From contig CP147778.1 in NCBI GenBank assembly GCA_037305845.1, positions 2,464,001-2,528,000 of the forward strand: a DNA stretch of 64,000 bases, written 5' to 3'. The stretch comes from Candidatus Freyarchaeum deiterrae (lineage in GTDB: Archaea > Asgardarchaeota > Jordiarchaeia > Jordiarchaeales > Jordiarchaeaceae). The translations under genes and the position numbers were made by a program. This document shows positions 49,424 through 64,000 of the stretch, piece by piece. The notes under the pieces are model-generated. The model made no database searches. It was not told the origin of the DNA and saw only the letters and a list, made by a program, of their open reading frames with translations. Within the stretch, counting starts at the first letter, position 1. Each line of letters opens with the position of its first letter.

Positions 49424-52132
49424 TCATGTTAAGGCATATCGCTTGTAGAACCATTTTTTAATAGTCTCAACAAGTAACAGGTAGCTACCAACCAAACCTG
49501 CTAGAATTATGTAGAATAAGAGTGGTGGTTGCGCGAATCCGAACAGTGCGCCTAACGGTGTGAACGGTATTATCAACGCGAAGCCGACAACAGCTAAACT
49601 GCTTATGGTCAAAAGCTTACTCGGCTTACTCTTAAAGAAAGGTGTTAAGGTCGTTCTTATAACGAATATAACCAGAGTCTGTGTGCACAAAGACTCAATA
49701 AACCAACCAGTTTGAAACAGTGATTGAGATGCGGCGAAGACGTTTAACATTATGAAGAAGGTTAGGAAGTCATAGATAGAACTCATTGGTCCAATAAGAA
49801 GCATGAATTTCCTTATGAAGGAAATATTCCATCTTCTCGGCTTTTCAGTATACACCGCATCAACATTGTCGGTTGGTATAGTTGTTTCAGACAAATCATA
49901 AAGAAAATTGTTTAAGAGTATCTGTATTGGCGTCATAGGCAAGAATGGAAGGAATAGAGACGCGCCTGCACAGCTGAACATGTTACCGAAATTCGAACTC
50001 GAACCCATCAGGATGTACTTCAGGGTGTTGCCGAAAGTTTTTCGTCCCTCTATAACTCCTTCTACTAACACCGTTAAATCCTTACGAGAAAGTATGATGT
50101 CTGCGGACTCTTTCGCAATATCCACAGCGTTATTGACCGATATGCCAACATCCGCAGTCCTCAAAGAGGGCGCATCATTAATGCCGTCGCCAAGAAAACC
50201 GACAACATGCCCGTTACTCTTCAACACGTTCATTATCCTGTCTTTCTGCTGGGGCGTCACCCTCGCGAAAACGTTTGAATTCTCAACTAATACCGCGAGA
50301 GCATCATCAGGCATTCCAACAATATCGCTTCCGAGAACAATACCCTTAACCTCAAAATCCAACTGCTCGCATACCTTCTTCGTAACTATCTCATTGTCGC
50401 CCGTACAAATTTTCAGTTCCACTCCCGCCTTGCTTAACAACTGAAGAGATTTTTTAACAGTTTTTTTAGGTGGGTCGAGGAACACCACATAACCCAAAAA
50501 TACCATACCACTCTCGTCGCTGACAGAGCACGCCTGCTTCTCCTCTTTCATACTCTTGTATGAGATTCCCAAAACTCTGAATCCATCAGAGCTCAGTTCA
50601 AAGTATTTTTGCTCGATCTTTCTCTGTAAATCACTTGTCATGTCAACTATTCTGTCCGCGAGTTCACAGTAAGAACACACTTTGATAATCTCATCAGGAG
50701 CACCCTTAGTAATCAAAAATCTCTGGCCCCTCTGTTCAACAACAACAGAAATTCGCTTTCTTATGAAATCAAAGGGAACCTCATCTATCTTCTGGTAACC
50801 CTTTGCAGTAACATCAACATTTTCGTGCCGAAGTATCGCCTCGTCAAGCGGGCTCTTCAACCCTGTTTGATAGTAACTGTTTAAGAAGGAATAGAGCAGC
50901 ACTTTTTCATCTTCATTTCCTTCAAAATCCACATGAAGAAGAAGTGTCACTTTATTCTCCGTGAGTGTTCCCGTCTTATCTGTACACAAAACATCCATGC
51001 TTCCGAAATTCTGAATCGACGCCAAACGTTTTACGATAACACCCTTCCTGGACATTGCGAGGCCAGCCTTTGAAAGGTTTACAGAGAGAATCATTGGCAA
51101 AAGTTCAGGCGTCAAACCAACCGCTAGAGCCACGGAGAAAAGAAGCGATTGTAGCACTTGTCCACTGATTTGCGTGCTTAAAGAGAGAATCCCTTGCAAA
51201 AGGTCAGGCGTCAAACCAAACGTTAGAGCCACAGCGAAAAGACCCGATTGTTGCATTTGCAGAGCTTGGCCCTTGAGAAGTGTATTTACGAAAAAGACGA
51301 ATACCACGAGGAAAAAGGTGATTTCCATTATTAGAAAACCGAATCTTCTAAGCCCCCTCTCATACTCCGTTTCCGGTTGTCTTGCGACAAGCTTTTTGGC
51401 AATTTTCCCATATTCTGTAAAGCTTCCAGTTTTTACCACAACAGCAGTTGCTGTTCCACTTACAACAGAAGTACCCAAAAAAAGATAGTTACTCCTTTCA
51501 GTGACTGTTTCACATTTAACCATCGACGGCGCAGCTGTTTTTTCTACCGGAAAAGACTCACCTGTTAATGAGGACTGGTTCAAGAAAAAGTCCTTAGACT
51601 CAATTACTCTCGCATCCGCAGGTACAATATCCCCCGCCGAAAGATATACTATGTCCCCTGGAACAATCTCGGAAAGCTTTACTTCTTTTTTAACGCCGTT
51701 TCTGAGAACAGTTGCGGTAGTGGTTACTTTTTCTTTAAGCATTTCAGCGGCTTTCTCAGCCCGAGATTCTTGGTAAAAGTCAAGAACCACGCTTAGAAGC
51801 ACTATCGCAAATATGATGACTGCGTTTATTACCTGTTGGAAAAAAACTGAAACCAAACCTGCAATCAACAAAATAATTATTAAAGGATTTCTGAAGTGAG
51901 AAGCGAATTCAGCAACAGCAGTTCTTTTCTTTCTCTTGGCTATCTCATTATGGCCGTAGAGCTCAAGGCGTTTTTCCACCTCTTGAGAGGTAAGGCCTGA
52001 TTGAGAAGTCTTCAAATTAGCAAAAAGATTGTTAATCGGCAGTTCAATCTGCTCTTCGGTGCCTTTCTCTAATTGTACCTGACTCGAAGACTTTGTTGTA
52101 CTCGCTTTCTTGGAGCCTTTGAAGCCATTCAT
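49424..52132 (-). CDS. mgtA: Mg2+-translocating P-type ATPase (P3B)
   Basis: TGES, GLTPELLPMI, DKTGTLT, IDEVPFDF.RKR, GDGIND and SSNFGN motifs; GGTGA SD before ATG 52132. Confidence 0.92.
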   Translation of the reverse strand: MNGFKGSKKASTTKSSSQVQLEKGTEEQIELPINNLFANLKTSQSGLTSQEVEKRLELYGHNEIAKRKKRTAVAEFASHFRNPLIIILLIAGLVSVFFQQVINAVIIFAIVLLSVVLDFYQESRAEKAAEMLKEKVTTTATVLRNGVKKEVKLSEIVPGDIVYLSAGDIVPADARVIESKDFFLNQSSLTGESFPVEKTAAPSMVKCETVTERSNYLFLGTSVVSGTATAVVVKTGSFTEYGKIAKKLVARQPETEYERGLRRFGFLIMEITFFLVVFVFFVNTLLKGQALQMQQSGLFAVALTFGLTPDLLQGILSLSTQISGQVLQSLLFSVALAVGLTPELLPMILSVNLSKAGLAMSRKGVIVKRLASIQNFGSMDVLCTDKTGTLTENKVTLLLHVDFEGNEDEKVLLYSFLNSYYQTGLKSPLDEAILRHENVDVTAKGYQKIDEVPFDFIRKRISVVVEQRGQRFLITKGAPDEIIKVCSYCELADRIVDMTSDLQRKIEQKYFELSSDGFRVLGISYKSMKEEKQACSVSDESGMVFLGYVVFLDPPKKTVKKSLQLLSKAGVELKICTGDNEIVTKKVCEQLDFEVKGIVLGSDIVGMPDDALAVLVENSNVFARVTPQQKDRIMNVLKSNGHVVGFLGDGINDAPSLRTADVGISVNNAVDIAKESADIILSRKDLTVLVEGVIEGRKTFGNTLKYILMGSSSNFGNMFSCAGASLFLPFLPMTPIQILLNNFLYDLSETTIPTDNVDAVYTEKPRRWNISFIRKFMLLIGPMSSIYDFLTFFIMLNVFAASQSLFQTGWFIESLCTQTLVIFVIRTTLTPFFKSKPSKLLTISSLAVVGFALIIPFTPLGALFGFAQPPLLFYIILAGLVGSYLLLVETIKKWFYKRYALT

Positions 52133-52600
52133 CGCTTTCACCATCCATAAAGACACCTCATGAGTTGAGCTACCCTTTTTTAAAATTAAAGAAAAAACCA
52201 CCATCATTGCTTATAGGTTTTTCCATAATCCACTATACTATGTAGTTTTCTCTTTTTCTTTTTGAAAAAGGTCTTCCTCTGCTTAATTTCGGTTTTCCGC
52301 TTGCGGATTTTTCTTCTTTTTCCTTTCTGTGCTTTTTTCTCCGTCTTTAATTTTCCAAGTACTCGTACTATTTGCAAATCTTTCGATATAGTTTTTATTG
52401 AAAAATTCTAGCCTCCTTCTAATTACCTATGGCAGCAAGAACCAATTCGTAGATTGGAACAACAGAAGATATATCTCAAATCTGCACAAAAACGGGAATA
52501 TAATTTGTAAAACTAGTTGTGGTCTTTAAAAGGGCAAAACAGGCGAAATAAATTGCCCAAAGAACTAATTCTGTAACTTCTGCACAACAGGTGTGAAGCT

Positions 52601-53539: not shown

Positions 53540-54991
53540 TTATCGTTTAGAATCCCTGCCCTCTTTTAGATATATCCTCAACATTTCGGGGTTCCACTTC
53601 CACGTTTCGGTCTGGGGGTCGAAAAGCTTCGGTAGGGGGTAGTTGCTTCCCTCCTGCTTGCTTCTGAAACATAGTTTATAATCTGCTAATGTACGTAGAT
53701 TCTGGCGCACTACTCTCTCAAGTGGGGTGATGCTTCCCGGCGGGGTTTCCAACCAGCAGGCGAGAGCTGGAGGGTTATCCCCCTTAAGAGATTTCATCCA
53801 GTAGATCCAAGCTTTTGGCAGCTCTCTAACAGCAACCACGAACGCATTAAGAGTGTTCATATCCGACTCGACGATGAAGAGTATGCTCTCACTCAAACCT
53901 ATGTGCTCTATGCTTAGAAACGGCAGAAGTATTCCACCCTCAAAGAGGCTATTCTTGGTTTTTTCCGCAGCGCGCATATCGTATTCGAGCTTCTTGCTCA
54001 ACTCTAGTGTGGGTTTATCCGCTCTTTCGAGCATCTCAACGATGAGCTTCAGGTCCTCAGTGGTGATACGCTTTCTTTTTTTGGGTGGTTCGGGTAAGGA
54101 ATTTGGCTCTTCTATTTTCTTTTTCTGGGGGATAACCTTGTCCCACCCCTTGTTGAGCACATTACTGAGGTAAAGTGACCAGGAATCCCAATCAATGCTC
54201 CAATCTTCCTTATCCGCATCATAAAAGCCGAACGAGTTGGAGCCCTCAAATCCATCGACTTCCCAGATCCATAGTTTTGAGAATCTCTTCCCGAAATCTT
54301 TGTGAACCTGGCTAACCGCGCCGGAAGGTACCGCGATTGAGAAGAGGGTGTATGAGTCCACGCCCAAGAGTTCTTGTCTCGAGAGGAGATACGGGCTCTC
54401 CACGTAGGCTTCACCCTCAACAATGACCACCAGATTAGAGAGGCCTATCTTTGAGTAATCCAATCGTGTGCCCACTCTTAGGCGGCACCTTTCCTCAAGT
54501 TCCTTCTTACGGTACAAAGCCGTCTTATAGCTCATATTGGTTTGCTTTTGAATATCGGCTATGGAGATAAACAGGTCGTCGCACATCGCATTCAGAATCA
54601 TCAAATCCTTCGCGTCCAGCCTTACGCGATAATCGTAAACTATGTTAAATAGAGTTTGCCTAAACTGTTCCGAGGTAAGAATCTCCCCACTAAGCCTCTT
54701 ATACTTGTTCATCTGCCTAAGCTTCGAAACCACCAAAGGCAGAAACTCTCCCCCCATTATAGAATCAACTATCATCAAATCCCTAAACTTCTCTCCCGCC
54801 CCTTCCTCCAATCCCTTTTCACCCTTATACCTGTAGACAAAGAACTCGGTCAAGAGCTGTTTATCCTCCTCAGATAAAATACCAGGTAAAAACAAGTGAA
54901 ACAGGCCCTCCACCGGGAGACTGTCAGGATTAGCAACCTTTTCTAATGGCTCACTCTTAAGAAACTCCTTAATTTTTACAATTTCACTCAT
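53540..54991 (-). CDS. Tandem Lrp/AsnC-like winged-helix regulator
   Basis: Two HTH-linker units (SIADIQKQTNMSYKTA...LDYSKIGL and PTLELSKKLEYD...IEHIGL). ATG 54991 preferred. Confidence 0.65.
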   Translation of the reverse strand: MSEIVKIKEFLKSEPLEKVANPDSLPVEGLFHLFLPGILSEEDKQLLTEFFVYRYKGEKGLEEGAGEKFRDLMIVDSIMGGEFLPLVVSKLRQMNKYKRLSGEILTSEQFRQTLFNIVYDYRVRLDAKDLMILNAMCDDLFISIADIQKQTNMSYKTALYRKKELEERCRLRVGTRLDYSKIGLSNLVVIVEGEAYVESPYLLSRQELLGVDSYTLFSIAVPSGAVSQVHKDFGKRFSKLWIWEVDGFEGSNSFGFYDADKEDWSIDWDSWSLYLSNVLNKGWDKVIPQKKKIEEPNSLPEPPKKRKRITTEDLKLIVEMLERADKPTLELSKKLEYDMRAAEKTKNSLFEGGILLPFLSIEHIGLSESILFIVESDMNTLNAFVVAVRELPKAWIYWMKSLKGDNPPALACWLETPPGSITPLERVVRQNLRTLADYKLCFRSKQEGSNYPLPKLFDPQTETWKWNPEMLRIYLKEGRDSKR

Positions 54992-55284
54992 AAAAACGCC
55001 CTTCAGATTAAAACATATGCAAATAGATAAATAAAATTTAGCGATAATAGTCCATCTCACCAAAACAAAGGATAGCAATCAAGAAAAAGCACCACCACAA
55101 ACCGCCAAAGTGGCTATTTTCCCGTATCCTCAACAAAAATTAGAAGTGTATTCCTTTTACAAAAATCTTATTCGGAGTATTTTGAATTTTTTTCAAATAA
55201 AAAGTTGAAGGCAACGTTAACAATAACATTATTAACATTTTTTCGAAAAGCGGAGTTCTTGAAGAAACATGTTCAAGAGTTCTG

Positions 55285-56007
55285 CTATAAGAGTTTTTTA
55301 ACTGTCTCCTTTAGTTTCTCTGAATCAATAATGTTGATGGGGTTTAAGTGATAATCCTTCTTACACAGTGACAGAATTATCTGTGCATCCTCTCCCTCCC
55401 TACAATCTACAAGGTTGAACAAAATTTCTGGATCAGTAACGCCGTTACTCAGGAGCTCCCAGAAAAATTCAGCCTGTAGCGCTAGAAGCCTGAGTTTTCC
55501 GCTGAGAATGATTTCAATAGATTCGGTGTAGTGGGAAGCCTCCGAAAGAAGATTCTCCATAAGCCAGCACCGTGTTTTCGCAACATCTACGTTAAGCCAC
55601 TTTCGATTATTCAAGTCATAAACAGCAACATTATGCTTGCTAAGTTCTTTTTCATCGGGAAGAGACACACACGAAGCCACCCACCCGGTGTCAAAACTCT
55701 CCATAAGCCGCGTGAGGAAATCCGATGAGATGCCCGAAGCCAGGTATATTACTCTCTCTGACCTACCGTTCTGTTCCCCTTCAAACAGGGCTTTGAGCTC
55801 CTCCATGCCGTTGTCAAAATCCTCTGAAATATCCAGCTCGTATTCCCACAACTGTCGGTGGGGGGCAAACGCAGTCACCTCTCTGAGAACGTTGCTATTT
55901 AGAAAGCCAAATAGGAGCACTGGGCGTCTCAGGGTGAAAATCAACTGCCCTAGCACTGCCAGACCCTTATCGCTGAAATATTTAGAAAGCTCTTTCAAAG
56001 AGTTCAC
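55285..56007 (-). CDS. Hypothetical protein, possible DENN-like domain
   Basis: LIFTLRRPVLLFG...AFAPHR...GWVA...VAVYDL resembles the cDENN core; overlaps the GTPase stop (GTGA). Confidence 0.55.
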   Translation of the reverse strand: MNSLKELSKYFSDKGLAVLGQLIFTLRRPVLLFGFLNSNVLREVTAFAPHRQLWEYELDISEDFDNGMEELKALFEGEQNGRSERVIYLASGISSDFLTRLMESFDTGWVASCVSLPDEKELSKHNVAVYDLNNRKWLNVDVAKTRCWLMENLLSEASHYTESIEIILSGKLRLLALQAEFFWELLSNGVTDPEILFNLVDCREGEDAQIILSLCKKDYHLNPINIIDSEKLKETVKKLL

Positions 56008-56582
56008 CGAGACTTGTTTTTGATGGCTAAACGTATCATACCCCGAAATACTTCGTATACACCCTCACCGGTTGCCGCTGAAGCGGGATAAACTCGAATG
56101 CCCCTAGGTAAACCCATTTCTTTTCTTAGTTTTTCCGCTGGGACTGCTTTGGGCAAGTCCTGTTTGTTCGCCTCAACTACTATTGGGATTTTGTTTTCTG
56201 TGAAGGCTATGAGCTCTTCAAAGCTTCTCACATTATCCTTCAATTTGTGTTCCTGTGAATCAGCGACGAAGAGAACACTATCCGCGTTTCTCGCAACCTG
56301 TTCCCTAGTTGCCAGAAACCTTTTTTGACCTGTTGTTGTGTGGACGTGGAACACGAAACAGTAAGGGGGAAACTCTAGTTGTAGAGCCAGGTAATCCTCC
56401 CAAATAGTGCGGCCCTCGCTAGTTGAGATTTCGTAGGGCTCGCCAATTATGTTATTTGGAAAAAGCTTCGCTAAAGCACGGATGTTTGTTGTTTTCCCAG
56501 ATGACGCGGGTCCCCAAAAGACAATCTTCAACTGCACCATTTTTTCTTCTGGCAAATCTCTCTGAAACTTTTCTGCCTCCAA
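56004..56582 (-). CDS. MglA-like small GTPase
   Basis: KIVFWGPASSGKTTN, GRT, TTTGQ (MglA-type TxxGQ rather than DxxGQ), FVADSQ, NKQDL and ASA motifs. Confidence 0.9.
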   Translation of the reverse strand: MEAEKFQRDLPEEKMVQLKIVFWGPASSGKTTNIRALAKLFPNNIIGEPYEISTSEGRTIWEDYLALQLEFPPYCFVFHVHTTTGQKRFLATREQVARNADSVLFVADSQEHKLKDNVRSFEELIAFTENKIPIVVEANKQDLPKAVPAEKLRKEMGLPRGIRVYPASAATGEGVYEVFRGMIRLAIKNKSR

Positions 56583-56598
56583 TTCTATCTAACTCCTT

Positions 56599-57183
56599 TT
56601 ACTTCGTTTCTCTTATGAGAGCGGCGTCCAGTATGTGCAGGACGTCCTCGATCTGCTCCTCACTTGCTTCAATGGTTTTTCTTATTGGCTCACTGTTCTT
56701 AATATCTTCTTGGATTCGCTTCACGTATTGGCTCATCTTCGCACGGATAAATCCAATATTCGCTTTCTCGGTAGCAAAAATCAGAAGCAGCAAAGACTTA
56801 TTTTCGTCAAGGTCACCGATTTTGCAGACGTAGAACTGTTTTGAATCGTACATAATCATCGCGTTCTGGAACGCGTCTGCACCCAGATGGGTCTCTCCTT
56901 GTTTTGCTATACCGGCCAAAGCTGCGCCCAAGGCTCCTGCATTCCAAGCGTTTTTTACATGAAAGAACCTAGATTTTGCTAAAGCCTTACCGTCGCTATC
57001 TACCAGTAGTAAACCCTCTATGTCGCCTTTACCAAGCATTCTCTTGTAAGATTCCAGTAGACTGTCTAGTGTATCTGAAACCCTGTTAGTCAGGTAAAAA
57101 TATCTGTGCTGTGTCTCGTTATTATTTTCTGGTGTTTGTTGAACTTTTCCAGTTGAGAAAAATTCCGAATCCATTTCATTCAC
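56599..57183 (-). CDS. Roadblock/LC7 (MglB-like) protein
   Basis: IEGLLLVDSDGKALA, GALGAAL.G.A and ANIGFIR motifs; directly upstream of the GTPase. Confidence 0.8.
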   Translation of the reverse strand: MNEMDSEFFSTGKVQQTPENNNETQHRYFYLTNRVSDTLDSLLESYKRMLGKGDIEGLLLVDSDGKALAKSRFFHVKNAWNAGALGAALAGIAKQGETHLGADAFQNAMIMYDSKQFYVCKIGDLDENKSLLLLIFATEKANIGFIRAKMSQYVKRIQEDIKNSEPIRKTIEASEEQIEDVLHILDAALIRETK

Positions 57184-57238
57184 TCCTTTAAACTTCTATA
57201 ATTCTTCTTAATCAGCATGATTTAAACACCCCTAAATG

Positions 57239-58216
57239 TTAGAGAGTGGTTTGTACGAGTTGCGATTCCTTGTAAGCCTTCACCAATCTCCTAATTCCCT
57301 TATCTATCCTCTCAGGCTTCATACTAAACTCCTCCAACAGTCGCCTGAGAGAACCAGTATTAGGAGCATTGAATATTATCTGAGGTTCCACAACATCGGG
57401 GTTTAGAAAAATCTCCCTAACACCTTCCACATCAAAAGGTTCCAACCCCGCTCCAGAAAATACTCCCCTAATATCCCCATGTTTTCGAATCAGTTTCAAC
57501 GCCTTTTTTGCTCCCACCTTCTTAACTCCCAAGTTAAAGTCAGTTCCCACAAGGATTGCCAAGTCTACAAGCTGCTCATAAGAAATGTTTTGCAGCTTCA
57601 GAACCTCTTCCAGAGTTGCACACTGAACATTGTTTTCCGTTAGATCCAGATTCCTCAAGATTGACCTAGCCCCAAAGAGCAGAGCGTCGTAATCCTGTGT
57701 GAGAACATGATCAGCCTTCCCTATCCGAGTCATGTAAGCCGCCTCCGCCTCTCCCTCTCCCGGAGACTTTACCCAGGGCACCCCCATAGTGGTGAGTAAT
57801 TTCTGGGTTTCGTTTATGATGGTATCGTATAAAATCTCATTGGATAATGATAGGGTTCTAGCTACATTGTAATTCTTGTTCTCTCTTGCTTTTCTCAGAT
57901 AACTGTACTCCTTAACCAGAGATTCCACCAGATGCTCCCTCCTCTCCTTCAGCCTCGGATGCGCTCCATCAAACACAATTATCGGTTTAATATTATGTTC
58001 CAAAAAGTTAGTGGTTCTATAAAACACACCATAAATGTGAGAGACCACACGACCCTCATAGTTAAAGAGAGGGAGATTCTGCCTCCTAATCTTATTTAAG
58101 AACTGAAACAGCATGTTTGAAGCGTCCACTGCTACCCTAGTATGCTCCAGTTGGTCTAGGGAAAGGGTTTTGAAGTTAACTATAGAAGCAAGTTTTACTC
58201 CCATCTTTTTCACCAT
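57239..58216 (-). CDS. Flap endonuclease-1 family nuclease, divergent (probable paralog)
   Basis: MGVKL, VDA.N..QFL, VFDG, EGEAEA, QDYD.LLFG, LVGTDFN.G and C-terminal QTTL. Confidence 0.88.
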   Translation of the reverse strand: MVKKMGVKLASIVNFKTLSLDQLEHTRVAVDASNMLFQFLNKIRRQNLPLFNYEGRVVSHIYGVFYRTTNFLEHNIKPIIVFDGAHPRLKERREHLVESLVKEYSYLRKARENKNYNVARTLSLSNEILYDTIINETQKLLTTMGVPWVKSPGEGEAEAAYMTRIGKADHVLTQDYDALLFGARSILRNLDLTENNVQCATLEEVLKLQNISYEQLVDLAILVGTDFNLGVKKVGAKKALKLIRKHGDIRGVFSGAGLEPFDVEGVREIFLNPDVVEPQIIFNAPNTGSLRRLLEEFSMKPERIDKGIRRLVKAYKESQLVQTTL

Positions 58217-59353
58217 CTATTTTTCGGCTTTCAGTATTTTTCTCATTTCTTCGATTCTTTCGTTTACCATTCTTTTCTGCTCCGAGCCCTCCTCGGACGA
58301 ATCCTCAATTTTAAATTGAGAAATTTTATTCAAAATCTCCTCCGCCCTATCTTTTTCACCCCTTGAAAGAAGGTAATCTAAGTAAATATTTAGGGCAACC
58401 AATAGATGCACTCTGGTATACCATCTCTCAAAGATTTGAATCGCCTTCTCAAAAGCCTCAACAACTCTCTGATCATTTTTTAACATAATATTCGAAACTC
58501 CTATGTGAAAGAGAGTGATAGCTTCTCCGGGTTGGCTGCCTTCCTCCCTCGAAATCGTAAAAGCTTTGTTGAACTGTTCAAGAGCCTCCCCCACTTTTCC
58601 TAATTTAAGAAGAACGGTTCCTACTCTTATACGGCAAAGCGGCTCCTCTACCCCATCATGTATTTCTTCTTTGATTTTCGCCGCTTCGAAATATGATTCA
58701 AGAGCCTCATCCAGTCTCCCCAGTCTCTCATGTATGACTCCGATTTCCCATAAACAAACACCTTTGGTTTTAGTGTCCTCTAATTCTTCTGAAAGTCGAA
58801 GAGCTTCCTGATATTTTTTGTAGGCTTTCTCATATCTCTGCATACCGAACAAAATGTCTCCCATTCTAACAAGAACCTCTAATACACCATCCTTTTCTAC
58901 ATTCTGAATAGCTTGGTAGGCCTGTTCAGAATGCTTCAAAGCCTTCTCCAAATCATCCATCAACCATAAGATTGTACTTATGTGAAAATGAACAGAACCC
59001 AAATTCAGCAAGTCCCCAAGCTCCCCGTAAATAGCCGCAGCCTCCGAGTAACACTTTACAGCATCATCCCCCCTCTCTTTGCTCCACATTAGACGCCCCA
59101 TTCTCGTCAGGCAATCACCCTCTGATGCCTTATCACCTTTTTCTCTGCTCAACTCCAGAATAAGGTTTAGAACCCTTTCCGCTGCATCGTGATGGTAAAG
59201 CTTCGTGCACTGATTAGCCACATTCAGCATGAACCTAGAAATGGACTCCCATTCCCTACCCTTCCCTTTCATAACGTCTATGATATCCTGAGGTTCAGCT
59301 CCTCGCGAAATCAGACTGGCTACACCGTAAACACTATTAATCAAACTTAGCAT
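58217..59353 (-). CDS. TPR-repeat protein
   Basis: Serial G.....G....A...Y..A repeats. Confidence 0.85.
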   Translation of the reverse strand: MLSLINSVYGVASLISRGAEPQDIIDVMKGKGREWESISRFMLNVANQCTKLYHHDAAERVLNLILELSREKGDKASEGDCLTRMGRLMWSKERGDDAVKCYSEAAAIYGELGDLLNLGSVHFHISTILWLMDDLEKALKHSEQAYQAIQNVEKDGVLEVLVRMGDILFGMQRYEKAYKKYQEALRLSEELEDTKTKGVCLWEIGVIHERLGRLDEALESYFEAAKIKEEIHDGVEEPLCRIRVGTVLLKLGKVGEALEQFNKAFTISREEGSQPGEAITLFHIGVSNIMLKNDQRVVEAFEKAIQIFERWYTRVHLLVALNIYLDYLLSRGEKDRAEEILNKISQFKIEDSSEEGSEQKRMVNERIEEMRKILKAEK

Positions 59354-60677
59354 CCTCCTCGTAGGATTTCCCCTCGGTGGCGTTCATCGAAATTTGAATA
59401 GGTAGAAGTTCAGATACTTCCTTCGAATTATACTTCTCCGTGTATTTCCTTCTCCTAATGAGATTGTATTCAATTTCGCCTCTTTTCTCGGTGTTCACCT
59501 GTCTTATTATCCGCGTCATATCTCCCCCTGTTCCAACAAAGAAAAGGCAAGCACCCCAAAGCCCGCAGCTCTTAGCGTCTATCATCCTCTGACACTTAAC
59601 TCTCGCCTCCGTTAGTTTCTTCTCCAAGCCTGGTTGCATAAGAAGACTTCCATCCCGACTCATGGACAACATAGTGATTAGGGAGGCCGGGTCATTCTTC
59701 TTGAATTTGTTAGACGCCAATCCCTCAATATTGCGTTTTAGTTCTTTTTCGGCTGTTCTAAATTCCTTATCCAGATTAAAAACAGGTCGCAAAAGGAGTA
59801 CGTAACCGGCACTCTCCTTCTCGAAATCCACGCCGCTCAAAACTCTTTCTAAGATTGGTTTCGTCTCTGTACTAAGAACTAATTCGTTAACACTGAGCTG
59901 ATCCAAATACTGTTTATCCAGTTTTTCAATATGATTACCATCACTTGCTAGCAGTGGTGAATATAAGCAGCGTTCAATCTCCAACTCATCAACTATTAAC
60001 CTCGTATCGTAACCCTCTTTTTCCAGTATAGCTCTGAAGAGGCTCATTTTTTTCCTCACCTGCTCCACCGCCTCACCGAAATTCCTGGAAGTCTCCCAAA
60101 CTGAGACAAAAGTGTACAACGCTTCATCCATCCTATAAGTTTCGAAGCTGAGATTGATTTTTTCCTTCCAGGCGGATAACAAAACCGAAACCCCGGTGCC
60201 ACTACCCTTTACTTCGGTGAATTGCAACACTTGGAAACCCTTTCTGCCACTTCTGAAGACTACACAATCATCCAAAATAGCGTCAGGCACAACGTAACGG
60301 GGAAATTTGCCCCTGACCCAGAGCAGAGGGATATCTCCTGAGTTGCGTCTTATTAATATTAAAACTACTAACGTTGCTGCCTCAACAGCGATAGTTATTA
60401 TGGCAGGAATTCCATGACTCAACCCTAGTCCAATAAAACCAATGCACATATTGACGGTTCCCACTCCCAATACGATTAGACTCGACTTACTGAACCGCCT
60501 GTCAAAAACGAACCTGGCTAGAGGATAAAGCACCAAATAAACCGCTAGAATGTAGAGAAGACCGAGAGGGCTGCCATTGAAGCAAGCCGTTATCCCAGTT
60601 TCTATTAATCTAATGAGGAAAGCAATTCCTACTGCCAACGCGAATATTATGGCTATATAATAGATTTCTTTAAACAT
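59337..60677 (-). CDS. Hypothetical protein: four N-terminal TM helices plus a soluble domain
   Basis: Hydrophobic aa 5-110; overlaps both neighbouring genes. Confidence 0.75.
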   Translation of the reverse strand: MFKEIYYIAIIFALAVGIAFLIRLIETGITACFNGSPLGLLYILAVYLVLYPLARFVFDRRFSKSSLIVLGVGTVNMCIGFIGLGLSHGIPAIITIAVEAATLVVLILIRRNSGDIPLLWVRGKFPRYVVPDAILDDCVVFRSGRKGFQVLQFTEVKGSGTGVSVLLSAWKEKINLSFETYRMDEALYTFVSVWETSRNFGEAVEQVRKKMSLFRAILEKEGYDTRLIVDELEIERCLYSPLLASDGNHIEKLDKQYLDQLSVNELVLSTETKPILERVLSGVDFEKESAGYVLLLRPVFNLDKEFRTAEKELKRNIEGLASNKFKKNDPASLITMLSMSRDGSLLMQPGLEKKLTEARVKCQRMIDAKSCGLWGACLFFVGTGGDMTRIIRQVNTEKRGEIEYNLIRRRKYTEKYNSKEVSELLPIQISMNATEGKSYEEDAKFD

Positions 60678-61393
60678 TTTTCACCAACCTTCCTTAATTT
60701 TTCCTGAAGTTCTGAATCAACAGAACTTATTCCTCCATTTGTAATCTGGTAGTAGACCCTACCACTCAGGTCACGGTAATGGCTGATAATTTCCGCCTCC
60801 ATGACTGGCTTCACAGGAAGCCCTGAAAGATGTAGTGTTATCTGGCAAAACTTGTTCAAACCCCCACCGGCTGCAGGAACCGTTTTACCCTCTTCTCCGT
60901 CTTCTACCTTAGAAACCACCTGGTTCAGTACAAGTACTGCTATGTCTCGCCTCCTCCTGCATAAACCCAGCATTTCAGGCAACTGTTTCTCCACAACATC
61001 TCGGTATCGGGAAAAACTAGTTTCAGGAGAGAGCCCCTCGCGGTACTGGGAGGCAATCGTGTCTACCACTATAAGTCTAGTTCTATTCGAGACATAAGCA
61101 TCCAGAACGCTGATTATCTCCGTTTGTTCGTCCAAACTCTTAGGAACAATTAGCGTTAATCTCTCCAGCGAATTCTCATCTTGGAAGAGTTGAGAGAACC
61201 TTTGGAAAGAGAACCTGTTATCACAGTCGATGTAAAGTGTTTGATAGCCTTCCTCGGATAGGTGGCCCGCCGCCTGCATGGCTATCGTAGTCTTACCCGT
61301 GGCAGCCTCCCCGTAGATGTGGGTAATTATCCCGGTTGGTATACCTCCTCCAATTAAATCGTCTATTGGACTATGCGTTCTGACACAAGACAC
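60653..61393 (-). CDS. RadB-like RecA-family ATPase
   Basis: IDDLIGGGIP.G.IT.IYGE.ATGKT, YID, LIVVDTI and VLNQV motifs; GTG 61393 follows a GGGGTGA SD. Confidence 0.85.
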   Translation of the reverse strand: MSCVRTHSPIDDLIGGGIPTGIITHIYGEAATGKTTIAMQAAGHLSEEGYQTLYIDCDNRFSFQRFSQLFQDENSLERLTLIVPKSLDEQTEIISVLDAYVSNRTRLIVVDTIASQYREGLSPETSFSRYRDVVEKQLPEMLGLCRRRRDIAVLVLNQVVSKVEDGEEGKTVPAAGGGLNKFCQITLHLSGLPVKPVMEAEIISHYRDLSGRVYYQITNGGISSVDSELQEKLRKVGEKCLKKSII

Positions 61394-61406
61394 TTCATAT
61401 TCACCC

Positions 61407-61826
61407 CTAAAGGTAAGTGAATTCAACACCACCACTTCTCCTAACCAGCATTCCCTCACTCTCCATGTAATCCAACCTCTTGAGCACCCAATCTTTAGCT
61501 AATCCTATTTTTTCAGCGTTTCTTACTATGTCTTGAACTGGAATCACTTTACTTTCCCGAAGGCTCTGGATAACGCTCTCCAATTTCTCGGTCTTGGTAT
61601 CCATTCCCAATGCATTGTACCTCTCCCCCATCTTCTCAGCCTGCCTCCTCTGAACAAGTTTCGCCCCTGTTTTCCAAGAGTCGACGATATCCCCATGTAA
61701 CCGCTGCGGGTTCAATTTCTCCCCGCATCTCGGGCAGGAAGGCTTCTTGCTGAGGGCGGCTGCAAAGTATTGTTTACATGACGGGCACTCTGCCACCATG
61801 TACTCCCTTTTTCCCATATTTCTCAA
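61407..61826 (-). CDS. Zinc-ribbon plus winged-helix protein (DUF1922/DUF5817-like)
   Basis: CPSC...CPRCG followed by a C-terminal wHTH (LKRLDYMESEGML). Confidence 0.7.
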   Translation of the reverse strand: MRNMGKREYMVAECPSCKQYFAAALSKKPSCPRCGEKLNPQRLHGDIVDSWKTGAKLVQRRQAEKMGERYNALGMDTKTEKLESVIQSLRESKVIPVQDIVRNAEKIGLAKDWVLKRLDYMESEGMLVRRSGGVEFTYL

Positions 61827-63985
61827 CTCCAGGTTTCGAGGTCTTTCTCTTTTCTACGATTCTTAATGCGTTCCTCCAAACTATTTCCCACCCTAGTCGC
61901 GGTTTTCGCCCCCTCCATATTCGCTATCTCCGTGACACAGTGTATCATCCAGTTTAGAGTATCAATGACCGATTCTAGGTCTCCCTGAGGAATCGCATAG
62001 AGAGAGCTAACCTGCCTGATACTCTTACCCTTAAGATAATCCAAAACCGCCACCGACATAAATTGAGGCTGCGGTCTACCATACTCCGACTCCACCGCGC
62101 TTAGAACCAAATTCAATAAACCAAGTTCATCATCAACGTTACCGTGAATCATGCTTCGAATTAGTATACCAGTAGCTGGCTTGAGATAGAGCCTTGTAAC
62201 CTGTTTCCCAAACCCTGTGGCAGTAAAAGTGTTCATTGTGGTTTCAGCAACTAATCCATTATCCCTCAGCTTTTTCAGCACATTCTCAGCGTTAAGGCAG
62301 CGTGACACTAAGCCCTTGTAGACTGGATAATTCCGCTCCACAACCTGGGCCAGCTTAACCAGATGCCTGCACAATCCTTCCCGATTTTCTCCCTGATAAG
62401 AACAAGTGCAGAGAGGACCTTGCTCCTCATGAAAACTGCAAACATTGACAACGGGATCCGTAACAGTAGCCTCAACTCTCTTAGAGAGTAATTGTAATCT
62501 CAAATCCTCGTCACGAATTCTCTCAGCGCCACTCAATTCACATGTTTCAGCAAGGCATTTCACAGAGTCAGATATGTTTGCCGAGCCCAACCTAACCAGC
62601 CTCTCAAGGCTTGGTTGTGAATTATTAGATTTCTCCTTCCTCCACCAAAAAGTTTTTTCAAAAAAGTTCAAGATATCCTTTTCATTCGCCGCCCCGCTCT
62701 CAAATATTCTGAGAAGGGTTTGCTCCTCAAGATTCTGAGGTGAACCGATGGAACTTTCCACGGGATTGTACCGAGGCACTAATTCCCCATCCCTGACATC
62801 AAAGTATTTCTCCAGAACCATAAAACGGTCCGAATCAGAAGAGCAGAGTACTACACCATAGCCCACGCTGTCAAACTCCGGTCTACCCGCTCTCCCCAAT
62901 ATCTGATGAAACTGATTCGCATTAATCCCATCAATCTCAAACTCACCAGTAGCCATCTCTACGCGATTAAACACTTGAAAATCCCTTAGAATCACTAACC
63001 GGGCAGGAGTGTCAATACCCGCAGACAGAGTAGTGGTGCAGCATACAACCTTGAGAAAACCGTTTCGAAATGCGTCCTCCACCAATTCCCTAGAACCATG
63101 ATTCAAACCCGCATGGTGAAAACCCACACCCTGCCTCATCAACTCAATCAAACGTTTAGAATAATTCTTACCCTCAACGAACCTAGCTGAGAGCGTCTCC
63201 CTCTCATCACCAGATAACTGAGGCTCAACCGACTTAACCAATTTACGAGCCAGACTCTCCGCGTCCCTCCTATGCGCAACAAAAACAAGAGCCTGACCGC
63301 CATTCTGAACTGTTGAGGAAACCAATTTCCTTATAGCCCCCAGTTTATCAGCCTCCACCAAGATATAGTTTTTTAAAGGCACGGGTCTGGTGTCTGACTC
63401 GATTAACTTTAAATTCAACCAATCCGCGAACTCACCAGCATTGGCAATGGTTGCACTCAATCCAATGAGCTGCACCCGCAGCTTCTCCCTTATTCTAATA
63501 AGTGCACTCTCCAGCCTCCCCCCTCTCTCGCCCTCACCCATAGCGTGTATCTCGTCCACCACAATAACCCTTATATCGTAGAGCCAATCGGGATTCAAAC
63601 GCAGAAGTGAATCAAACCTCTCAATTGTTGTGATCAGTATATTCGCTTCCTCCAAAATATCGGGAGTATAATGGAAATCGCCGGTGGATATCCTAATCTT
63701 CAAATTCAGGCTGCGGTACTTTCTCAGGAATATACCAAATTTCTCCCGGGCGAGAGCTTTCAGGGGAACCATGTAAACCGCCTTCCCGCCTTCCAGAACC
63801 CATTTCAAAATAGCAAGCTCTCCCACCAGGGTTTTACCACTAGCTGACGGAGAACAAACCAGAAGATCAGCGCCCTCGAATAATCCACCCTGAATTGCAA
63901 GTATTTGAACGGCGCGCAAATAGTTTATCCCCTGCTGTTCCAGAATCTCCCGGATTTGGGCAGGCATCTTCTCCTCCAAGTTCAA
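61823..63985 (-). CDS. Ski2/Hel308-like SF2 helicase with inserted SWIM zinc finger
   Basis: SPSASGKT, VPLKALA, DEIH, SAT, HHAGL, TTTLSAG.D.PA and QILGRAGRP motifs; CTC-x10-CRH. Confidence 0.9.
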   Translation of the reverse strand: MNLEEKMPAQIREILEQQGINYLRAVQILAIQGGLFEGADLLVCSPSASGKTLVGELAILKWVLEGGKAVYMVPLKALAREKFGIFLRKYRSLNLKIRISTGDFHYTPDILEEANILITTIERFDSLLRLNPDWLYDIRVIVVDEIHAMGEGERGGRLESALIRIREKLRVQLIGLSATIANAGEFADWLNLKLIESDTRPVPLKNYILVEADKLGAIRKLVSSTVQNGGQALVFVAHRRDAESLARKLVKSVEPQLSGDERETLSARFVEGKNYSKRLIELMRQGVGFHHAGLNHGSRELVEDAFRNGFLKVVCCTTTLSAGIDTPARLVILRDFQVFNRVEMATGEFEIDGINANQFHQILGRAGRPEFDSVGYGVVLCSSDSDRFMVLEKYFDVRDGELVPRYNPVESSIGSPQNLEEQTLLRIFESGAANEKDILNFFEKTFWWRKEKSNNSQPSLERLVRLGSANISDSVKCLAETCELSGAERIRDEDLRLQLLSKRVEATVTDPVVNVCSFHEEQGPLCTCSYQGENREGLCRHLVKLAQVVERNYPVYKGLVSRCLNAENVLKKLRDNGLVAETTMNTFTATGFGKQVTRLYLKPATGILIRSMIHGNVDDELGLLNLVLSAVESEYGRPQPQFMSVAVLDYLKGKSIRQVSSLYAIPQGDLESVIDTLNWMIHCVTEIANMEGAKTATRVGNSLEERIKNRRKEKDLETWS

Positions 63986-64000
63986 GAAGGTTCCCAGACT

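Follow-up and report, generated by a model that had tools for sequence, protein, structure and literature searches.

A chromosomal Asgard locus that joins a VirB4/HerA-fold pseudo-ATPase, its own set of recombination enzymes and a roadblock-GTPase-DENN triad

A 64,000-nucleotide stretch of the Candidatus Freyarchaeum deiterrae chromosome (CP147778.1, positions 2,464,001 to 2,528,000; hereafter the window, part of a complete 3,576,204-bp genome) ends in a run of minus-strand genes for paralogs of DNA-processing enzymes, a membrane protein and a small GTPase with its neighbors. Ten open reading frames (ORFs) had been described here in an earlier note made from the letters of the sequence, and all ten are present in the order and on the strand given. 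The successive intergenic gaps are -4, -53, -25, -17, 0, 55, 16, -4 and 206 nt; the first nine genes overlap or lie close together, as had been claimed, with gaps from -53 to 55 nt. The ten make up one half of a larger cluster that extends past the window. Its core, made up of a membrane-associated VirB4/HerA-fold pseudo-ATPase (hereafter the ring protein, or pseudo-VirB4), a RadA paralog and surface proteins, lies outside the window. In what follows, G000 is the genome that holds the window and C1 its contig, G and L numbers denote comparison genomes and loci, and f and g numbers denote families and genera. The roadblock, small GTPase and DENN-fold genes are called the triad. The features are as follows.

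61823..64000 (probable start beyond the window end), minus strand: Hel308-like superfamily 2 (SF2) helicase paralog with a SWIM zinc finger
61407..61826, minus strand: zinc-ribbon and winged-helix (Zn-wHTH) protein, a conserved locus member
60653..61435, minus strand: RadB-like RecA-family paralog, Walker A GEAATGKT intact
59337..60677, minus strand: membrane protein with four transmembrane (TM) segments and a soluble domain
58217..59353, minus strand: TPR protein, a local insertion
57239..58216, minus strand: FEN1 paralog
56599..57183, minus strand: roadblock (MglB/LAMTOR-like) protein of a locus-linked subfamily
56004..56582, minus strand: MglA-type small GTPase
55285..56007, minus strand: stand-alone protein of predicted cDENN+dDENN fold
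53540..54991, minus strand: tandem Lrp/AsnC-like helix-turn-helix (HTH) protein, loosely linked
C1:2528030-2529928, minus strand, beyond the window: 2-TM protein
C1:2531222-2532289, plus strand, beyond the window: RadA paralog
C1:2532308-2534974, plus strand, beyond the window: M28-like surface protein
C1:2534961-2535413 and C1:2535530-2536378, plus strand, beyond the window: two TM proteins
C1:2536384-2537946, plus strand, beyond the window: ring protein (VirB4/HerA-fold pseudo-ATPase, 520 amino acids)
C1:2539726-2540646, minus strand, beyond the window: 6-TM protein
C1:2540745-2542778, minus strand, beyond the window: distal surface protein

Pfam and NCBIfam searches of the window genes returned Hel308-like SF2 helicase, RadB-like, TPR, FEN1, roadblock, small GTPase and HTH families, with the helicase, RadB and FEN1 scoring below the NCBIfam equivalog cut-offs. 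A TGA overlapping a TTG at 63985 had been taken as a hint that the cluster continues. The cluster does continue, but this TGA is not the stop of the upstream gene, which ends 30 nt past the window; the likeliest helicase start is an ATG 24 nt past the window end, with a GTG 15 nt past it as the alternative. RadB likely starts at 61435. Next to the 2-TM gene lies a small HTH gene, followed by the divergent operon of RadA, the M28-like protein, two TM proteins and the ring protein. The description of the ten genes as a unit therefore stands in so far as they belong to the locus, but not as a complete set: besides the core lying elsewhere, the TPR gene is confined to a sub-lineage and the Lrp-like gene is only loosely linked. 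The likely start of the latter (54991) leaves a 293-nt gap to the preceding gene, and it is probably a separate transcript. A distant Lrp-like homolog occurs near pseudo-VirB4 in two f12 genomes.

Identification of the ring protein rests on profile and structural matches. It matched the HerA profile (E 3.7e-9), and a model of it (pLDDT, the predicted local distance difference test, 86) had VirB4 as its best Foldseek match (E 3.3e-12); among structural matches DndH/VirB4 (Z 29) were followed by HerA and TrwB. In addition to this fold it carries a winged-helix tail. The Walker A lysine (GK[ST]) is missing from 24 of 24 locus copies, and 134 of 135 database representatives of the family are without GK[ST] at the P-loop. 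Its top NCBIfam match was CedD, at 32 bits against a cut-off of 600. A TM domain that has its own gene here is joined, as one copy or two, to the ring protein in other lineages. The membrane protein of the window has four hydrophobic segments, in agreement with the earlier description, and its soluble domain has a weak likeness to the membrane-proximal domain found ahead of pseudo-VirB4 or fused to it (hhalign probability 72, E 3.4e-5), the reverse comparison being weaker (probability 24). In the Atlas it matched only clusters below 0.9. Homology among the 2-TM proteins of different classes is likewise weak.

Several observations concern the surroundings of the ring gene and its relatives. In a Logan assembly (SRR29366192, contig around P0151) a DUF87 HerA/VirB4-family gene of 838 amino acids immediately precedes the pseudo-ATPase; its product, if active, might be the ancestral partner of the dead ring. 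The other HerA/VirB4 ATPases of G000 with intact P-loops sit in unrelated neighborhoods, and none is tied to the locus. At C1:2271448-2276958 a 1013-residue HerA-like ATPase is flanked by two genes that resemble ESCRT-III by eye. Near the ring gene, Loki-type loci have a gene for a membrane protein with a helix-hairpin-helix (HhH) domain at its N terminus (L053:4046-6184, L044:13873-15648, L049:14308-16125), recalling a membrane DNA receptor. An M50/site-2-type intramembrane protease (HExxH, PSxxD) recurs in the loci of many Asgard families (L077:1929-2684, L067:9488-10273, L068:6531-7202, L023:8674-9321, L094:5237-6016 and others) and was not seen in loci of this genus; it could process a surface protein, a pilin or a regulator. 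NifH-like ATPase and nitrogenase-component-1-like genes directly after pseudo-VirB4 (L034:5507-9229, L024:6299-8403) are probably chance neighbors.

The DNA enzymes had been called divergent versions of housekeeping genes, and G000 bears this out. The locus copies of the helicase, RadB and FEN1 are extra copies and not the sole housekeeping ones, because canonical Hel308 (C1:1801606-1803825), RadB (C1:1585058-1585759) and FEN1 (C1:2244761-2245795) genes lie elsewhere in the genome. Two canonical-looking RadA genes encoding 315 residues (C1:2323552-2324499, C1:1520672-1521619) accompany the locus RadA paralog. The SWIM call for the helicase was confirmed: the CxC..CxH motif (C526/C528/C539/H541 in 720-residue numbering) is inserted in the winged-helix region, is invariant in 17 aligned locus helicases and is not present in canonical Hel308. 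Its ATPase motifs (Walker A, DExH and motif VI) are intact, and it scored 340 bits against the NCBIfam Hel308 model (cut-off 1200). Canonical Hel308 has five domains, the last of which is described as a brake on the helicase (PMC13623763); the locus helicase is without this C-terminal HhH domain 5, and the longer Loki-type copies have apparently kept a C-terminal region. Walker A is retained in both the RadB-like and the RadA paralog. In the FEN1 paralog (299 bits against TIGR03674, cut-off 352) the catalytic acidic residues are kept, the loop after the second metal site is shortened and the C-terminal PIP-like motif is truncated. The Zn-wHTH protein matches a family in f7 and f33 loci (profile match probability 97, E 1.7e-10) and is also found in Loki-type loci. 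By their motifs, these enzymes look active and specialized, not decayed. In f7 loci (L046:3497-4213) there is also a second RadB-like paralog without Walker A, together with an XPD-like helicase.

A search for synteny across Asgard genomes, which the earlier note had proposed, revealed a neighborhood conserved far beyond the genus. Related genomes are not independent, and results are given as counts with no statistical tests. Gene order is the same in five of five congeners except for the TPR gene, which occurs only here and in one close relative and is missing between the same neighbors in five congeneric genomes. In G009, from the same taxonomic order and another family, all modules stand in a single co-directional operon, in the order surface protein, roadblock, GTPase, DENN, helicase, Zn-wHTH, RadB, TM, RadA, small ORF, TM, pseudo-VirB4 and FEN1. 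Ring-gene neighborhoods in twenty further Asgard genomes contain mostly the same parts, reshuffled, and the ring protein occurs in Baldrarchaeota, Helarchaeota and Promethearchaeia, among others. Both positions were listed for 96 genomes; the helicase and ring genes share a contig in 77 of them, within 12 kb in 72 of these and within 33 kb in all, and in the other 19 they fall on separate contigs of draft assemblies. A smaller core of TM protein, pseudo-VirB4 and RadA paralog, with or without the RadB-like protein, is present in Thermoprotei and Methanomethylicia, and the ring protein also occurs in Bathyarchaeia. Genome counts at E 1e-5 (193 of 400 and 287 of 400) include weak cross-matches to other paralogs of HerA and Hel308 and do not represent numbers of orthologs. 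Judged from these comparisons, the core locus is conserved across Asgard archaea and, in reduced form, in TACK archaea.

The three triad genes were then characterized individually. The GTPase motifs are of the MglA type: G1 GPASSGKT (GxxxxGKT), an arginine before the G2 threonine (GRT), TTGQ at G3 (TxxGQ in place of DxxG) and NKQD (NKxD). It groups with the other MglA-like GTPase of the genome and apart from the Rab-like ones; in f12 copies the intrinsic arginine is replaced by histidine. In f2 the roadblock protein has an extra N-terminal domain of about 100 residues that resembles a second, degenerate roadblock (L021:5040-5912, L066:2330-3154). The 240-residue third protein, previously described as DENN-like, has no Pfam match, yet the top five VIA matches of its AF2 model (pLDDT 77.6) among 48,161 chains were all DENN proteins: C9orf72 (Z 8.4), FLCN (8.4 and 8.3), DENND10 (8.0) and DENND1A (7.6). 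The matches span about residues 2-231 and align only with the C-terminal cDENN/dDENN parts of the targets, and the N-terminal longin domain of the FLCN/C9orf72 tripartite module is not present in the protein. A cDENN+dDENN fold is thus supported by the model; the Z scores are middling, and the case rests on their unanimity and coverage. An alternative assignment as an AAA+ ATPase (Atlas, Foldseek) was rejected in favor of the full-length DENN matches, the scores being weak (below 0.9, E at least 0.008, TM-score at most 0.4) and the matches covering mostly the alpha/beta core. A search for longer fused forms of the protein found none. By synteny, a 555-residue tandem DENN-like protein was seen at L052:5239-6906, divergent from roadblock-GTPase genes and near pseudo-VirB4, with a DNA ligase gene adjoining.

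Complex prediction of the DENN protein against a roadblock dimer plus GTPase gave a score of 0.50, the best control reaching 0.18, with contact agreement of at least 86% between runs and partner pLDDT of at least 81. The mark that this score passed is reached by 58 of 80 solved complexes and by 2 of 110 mismatches, and those passing it at 0.60 or less comprise just 7 of the 80 solved complexes and both mismatches. The pass may stem from likeness to solved DENN-GTPase complexes. The prediction lends weak support to binding of the DENN protein to the roadblock dimer and GTPase.

We next considered how the triad is linked to the locus. It lies in or beside the locus in f1, f2, f6 and genus g21 of f12. 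Taken together, such an arrangement is seen in Jordarchaeia, the Loki type and two further families, and 28 of 29 same-contig cases fall within 33 kb. The roadblock ortholog, which belongs to a locus-linked subfamily, is also found in the Loki-type families f9 and f30, where a related GTPase follows and then, usually, a protein of about 390 residues that matches the DENN profile over its N-terminal half (E down to 2e-7); in Loki-type loci these genes stand beside the FEN1 paralog. Among the matches listed, 26 have the roadblock ortholog on the same contig as the helicase or ring gene, in each of these at a distance of no more than 33 kb, and 30 others sit on contigs separate from those genes. 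In G167 and G172, both complete, the triad lies between the helicase and ring genes, and in the complete genome G164 the roadblock, helicase and ring markers were all undetected. Thor-, Odin- and Atabeya-type genomes lie beyond the reach of the DENN profiles. The triad is a recurrent accessory kept through several rearrangements; it is not an obligatory gate, because complete loci of other lineages are without it.

Transcription signals were also scanned. Sigma-70 promoter and terminator predictions, by a method ill-suited to archaea, were at chance level. Two TGTAA-N15-TTACA palindromes (C1:2530452 and C1:2530556) occupy the divergent promoter region, with a one-mismatch copy upstream of the distal surface protein (C1:2543288); the box was not found in five congeneric loci and is not used as evidence. 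An unrelated P-type ATPase of the Mg/Ca-transport kind, judged by motifs, flanks the locus (window 49424-52207, minus strand).

Among known systems, the archaeal DNA importers Ced (Sulfolobales) and Ted (Thermoproteales), built from CedA/A1/A2/B/D (PMC9905601, PMC11823120), share with the locus a chromosomal setting, a membrane-bound VirB4/HerA-family protein and linkage to recombination genes (HerA and Rad50 in Ted). The locus differs in its ring, which has a winged-helix tail and no Walker A lysine in contrast to the active ATPases CedB/CedD, in having no CedA or pilin match among the TM proteins scanned, and in its private RadA, RadB, Hel308 and FEN1 and its triad. By analogy, the locus would work most like Ced/Ted import coupled to recombination; it is not a member of that group, because the ring is without an intact ATPase site of their kind. 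An Asgard operon of roadblock, small GTPase and DENN genes has been published and likened to FLCN/Ragulator (Liu et al. 2020, bioRxiv 10.1101/2020.10.19.343400). Compared by gene types, it has the same three adjacent genes with a GTPase that is not Rag, called "Rab-like" there and MglA-type here, where the DENN protein is without longin; the text of that paper contains no mention of VirB4, HerA or RadA and no tie to a recombination locus. The MglA-MglB pair of Myxococcus (PMC9481161) likewise combines MglA-type motifs with an adjacent roadblock gene, but its partner is RomR/RomX instead of a DENN-fold protein, and it is associated with the type IV pilus motor instead of a linked DNA machine. 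What is new here is the position of the triad in or beside the locus; the triad itself matches the published Asgard type.

In eukaryotes, the Shu complex (SWS1-SWSAP1), taken together with HELQ-BCDX2 (PMC13623763), resembles the locus in combining a SWIM finger with a helicase of the Hel308/HELQ family and with paralogs from the RecA family. This likeness is one of composition, and the locus differs in having SWIM inside the helicase and in a helicase that has lost domain 5. Gram-positive competence machinery comprises ComEA, ComEC, ComFA, DprA and RecA. It parallels the scheme proposed for the locus in its SF2 ATPase motor and in loading of a dedicated recombinase at the membrane, and Loki-type loci have a TM-anchored HhH protein, but ComEC, DprA and competence-pilus families had no match among the locus proteins scanned.

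The observation to be explained is that membrane and surface proteins, a dead ring and private RadA, RadB, SWIM-Hel308, Zn-wHTH and FEN1 are inherited as one locus. We propose, with a probability of roughly one half, that it encodes a chromosomal, membrane-anchored machine for DNA uptake or exchange and recombination, with a GTPase switch to tune it. The basis of this proposal is co-inheritance, folds and motifs, and from them we infer transport, its direction and the contacts between modules. With no P-loop lysine, the ring would be a membrane scaffold or DNA conduit and not a motor, and the SWIM helicase, with its ATPase motifs kept and the domain-5 brake missing, would provide the pulling and unwinding force. 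SWIM and RadB could together be the mediator by which the dedicated RadA is loaded on incoming single strands, in the way that SWS1/SWSAP1 serves RAD51, and the FEN1 paralog may trim flaps following strand exchange. The triad would be an accessory switch that sets where or when the machine assembles at the membrane, much as MglAB acts on type IV pili, with roadblock as GTPase-activating protein or scaffold and DENN as guanine nucleotide exchange factor or adaptor. The earlier note had suggested a membrane-associated DNA module gated by a GTPase and linked to MglAB-type signaling. A DNA-handling and recombination module is indeed the best reading and the triad does travel with the locus in several Asgard families, but gating is no general requirement.

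Some findings weigh against a DNA-transporting machine. The locus yielded no CedA/VirB6-like channel, no CedA1/VirB2-like pilin and no active VirB4-type ATPase, which leaves the route of DNA across the membrane missing. The locus TM proteins scanned had no NCBIfam or Pfam match, and of the small 2-3-TM proteins present, the one scanned matched no family. DNA might be imported, exported or not moved at all. The triad lies 270 kb from the locus in G214 and went undetected in the loci of f7 (Thor-type), Baldr and G049, and gene linkage does not demonstrate contact between GTPase and DNA machine.

It is possible, if unlikely, that the locus serves membrane-tethered repair or chromosome handling without transport, in which damaged or replicating chromosomes are anchored by the TM proteins and the dead ring, the toolkit recombines sister copies, and stress or a cell-cycle state switches the process on through the GTPase. 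The lack of an identified channel, pilin or active ring motor fits this account, as do the XPD-like, Hef-like, RPA-like, ligase and PLD-nuclease genes that join the locus in some lineages. However, tethering alone would not need the large surface proteins and the several small TM proteins that recur in the locus, VirB4 is the closest match of the ring, and the locus is patchy, being undetected in whole families such as f5 (0 of 31). Patchiness would suit a defense system in which membrane sensors and a HerA-like scaffold send helicase and nuclease to entering viral or plasmid DNA, and HerA-fold proteins of Sir2-HerA and similar systems are among the structural matches. This role, which had been among those suggested, found no support and we regard it as very unlikely: PADLOC, run on ten proteins, gave generic helicase matches only, no toxic effector was seen, and the full RadA/RadB set with its order conserved across classes better fits a domesticated recombination role. 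A mobile conjugative element or its decaying remnant is highly improbable. Although the VirB4-like ancestry and the GC content (0.44 vs 0.41 for the genome, near the 95th percentile of 10-kb windows) point that way, the locus is intact, mostly single-copy and conserved in order within lineages, no integrase or relaxase was recognized among the flanking ORFs, and the ring protein was not found in the viral contigs scanned.

A separate question is whether the DNA machine is real and the triad an unrelated signaling operon that merely shares its neighborhood in some lineages. Such a triad is already described in the literature as a general operon of Asgard archaea, the MglA-like genes of f7, f3 and f13 genomes are distant from the helicase, the G214 triad is unlinked, and a 55-nt gap precedes the roadblock gene. 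We nevertheless consider this rather improbable, in view of a linkage that outlasts rearrangement: the triad follows FEN1 in f1 and f9, precedes the helicase within a single operon in f2, lies close to the ring gene in f6, adjoins an ortholog of the locus 2-TM gene in f12 genus g21 and stands between surface protein and RadA in f30, and it is single-copy in G000.

The membrane-anchored uptake or exchange machine, if real, invites a bolder proposal, which we offer tentatively as unlikely: an ancient Asgard programme of cell-to-cell DNA exchange, built on a domesticated dead type IV secretion ring, switched by the triad and served by a SWIM-helicase/RadB mediator, in effect a sex-like process. 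The triad would then be of a type forerunning Ragulator/folliculin signaling, and the mediator would be akin to Shu/HELQ. No description of the locus or of an Asgard DNA-exchange system was found in the literature searched, which was largely open-access; judged by its composition, the locus as a whole is apparently undescribed, the triad alone being already known. Locus and triad occur in a complete 6,035,313-bp genome and were undetected in a complete 4.4-Mb relative, which provides a natural negative control. For the roadblock-GTPase-DENN operon, which is a eukaryotic-signature module without a known cellular job, the locus offers a first candidate target; it is also a concrete candidate DNA-exchange system with named parts. 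If the proposal holds, a regulated sex-like process would have existed in the lineage that gave rise to eukaryotes. DNA exchange and recombination in their archaeal ancestor bear directly on the origin of meiosis and sex.

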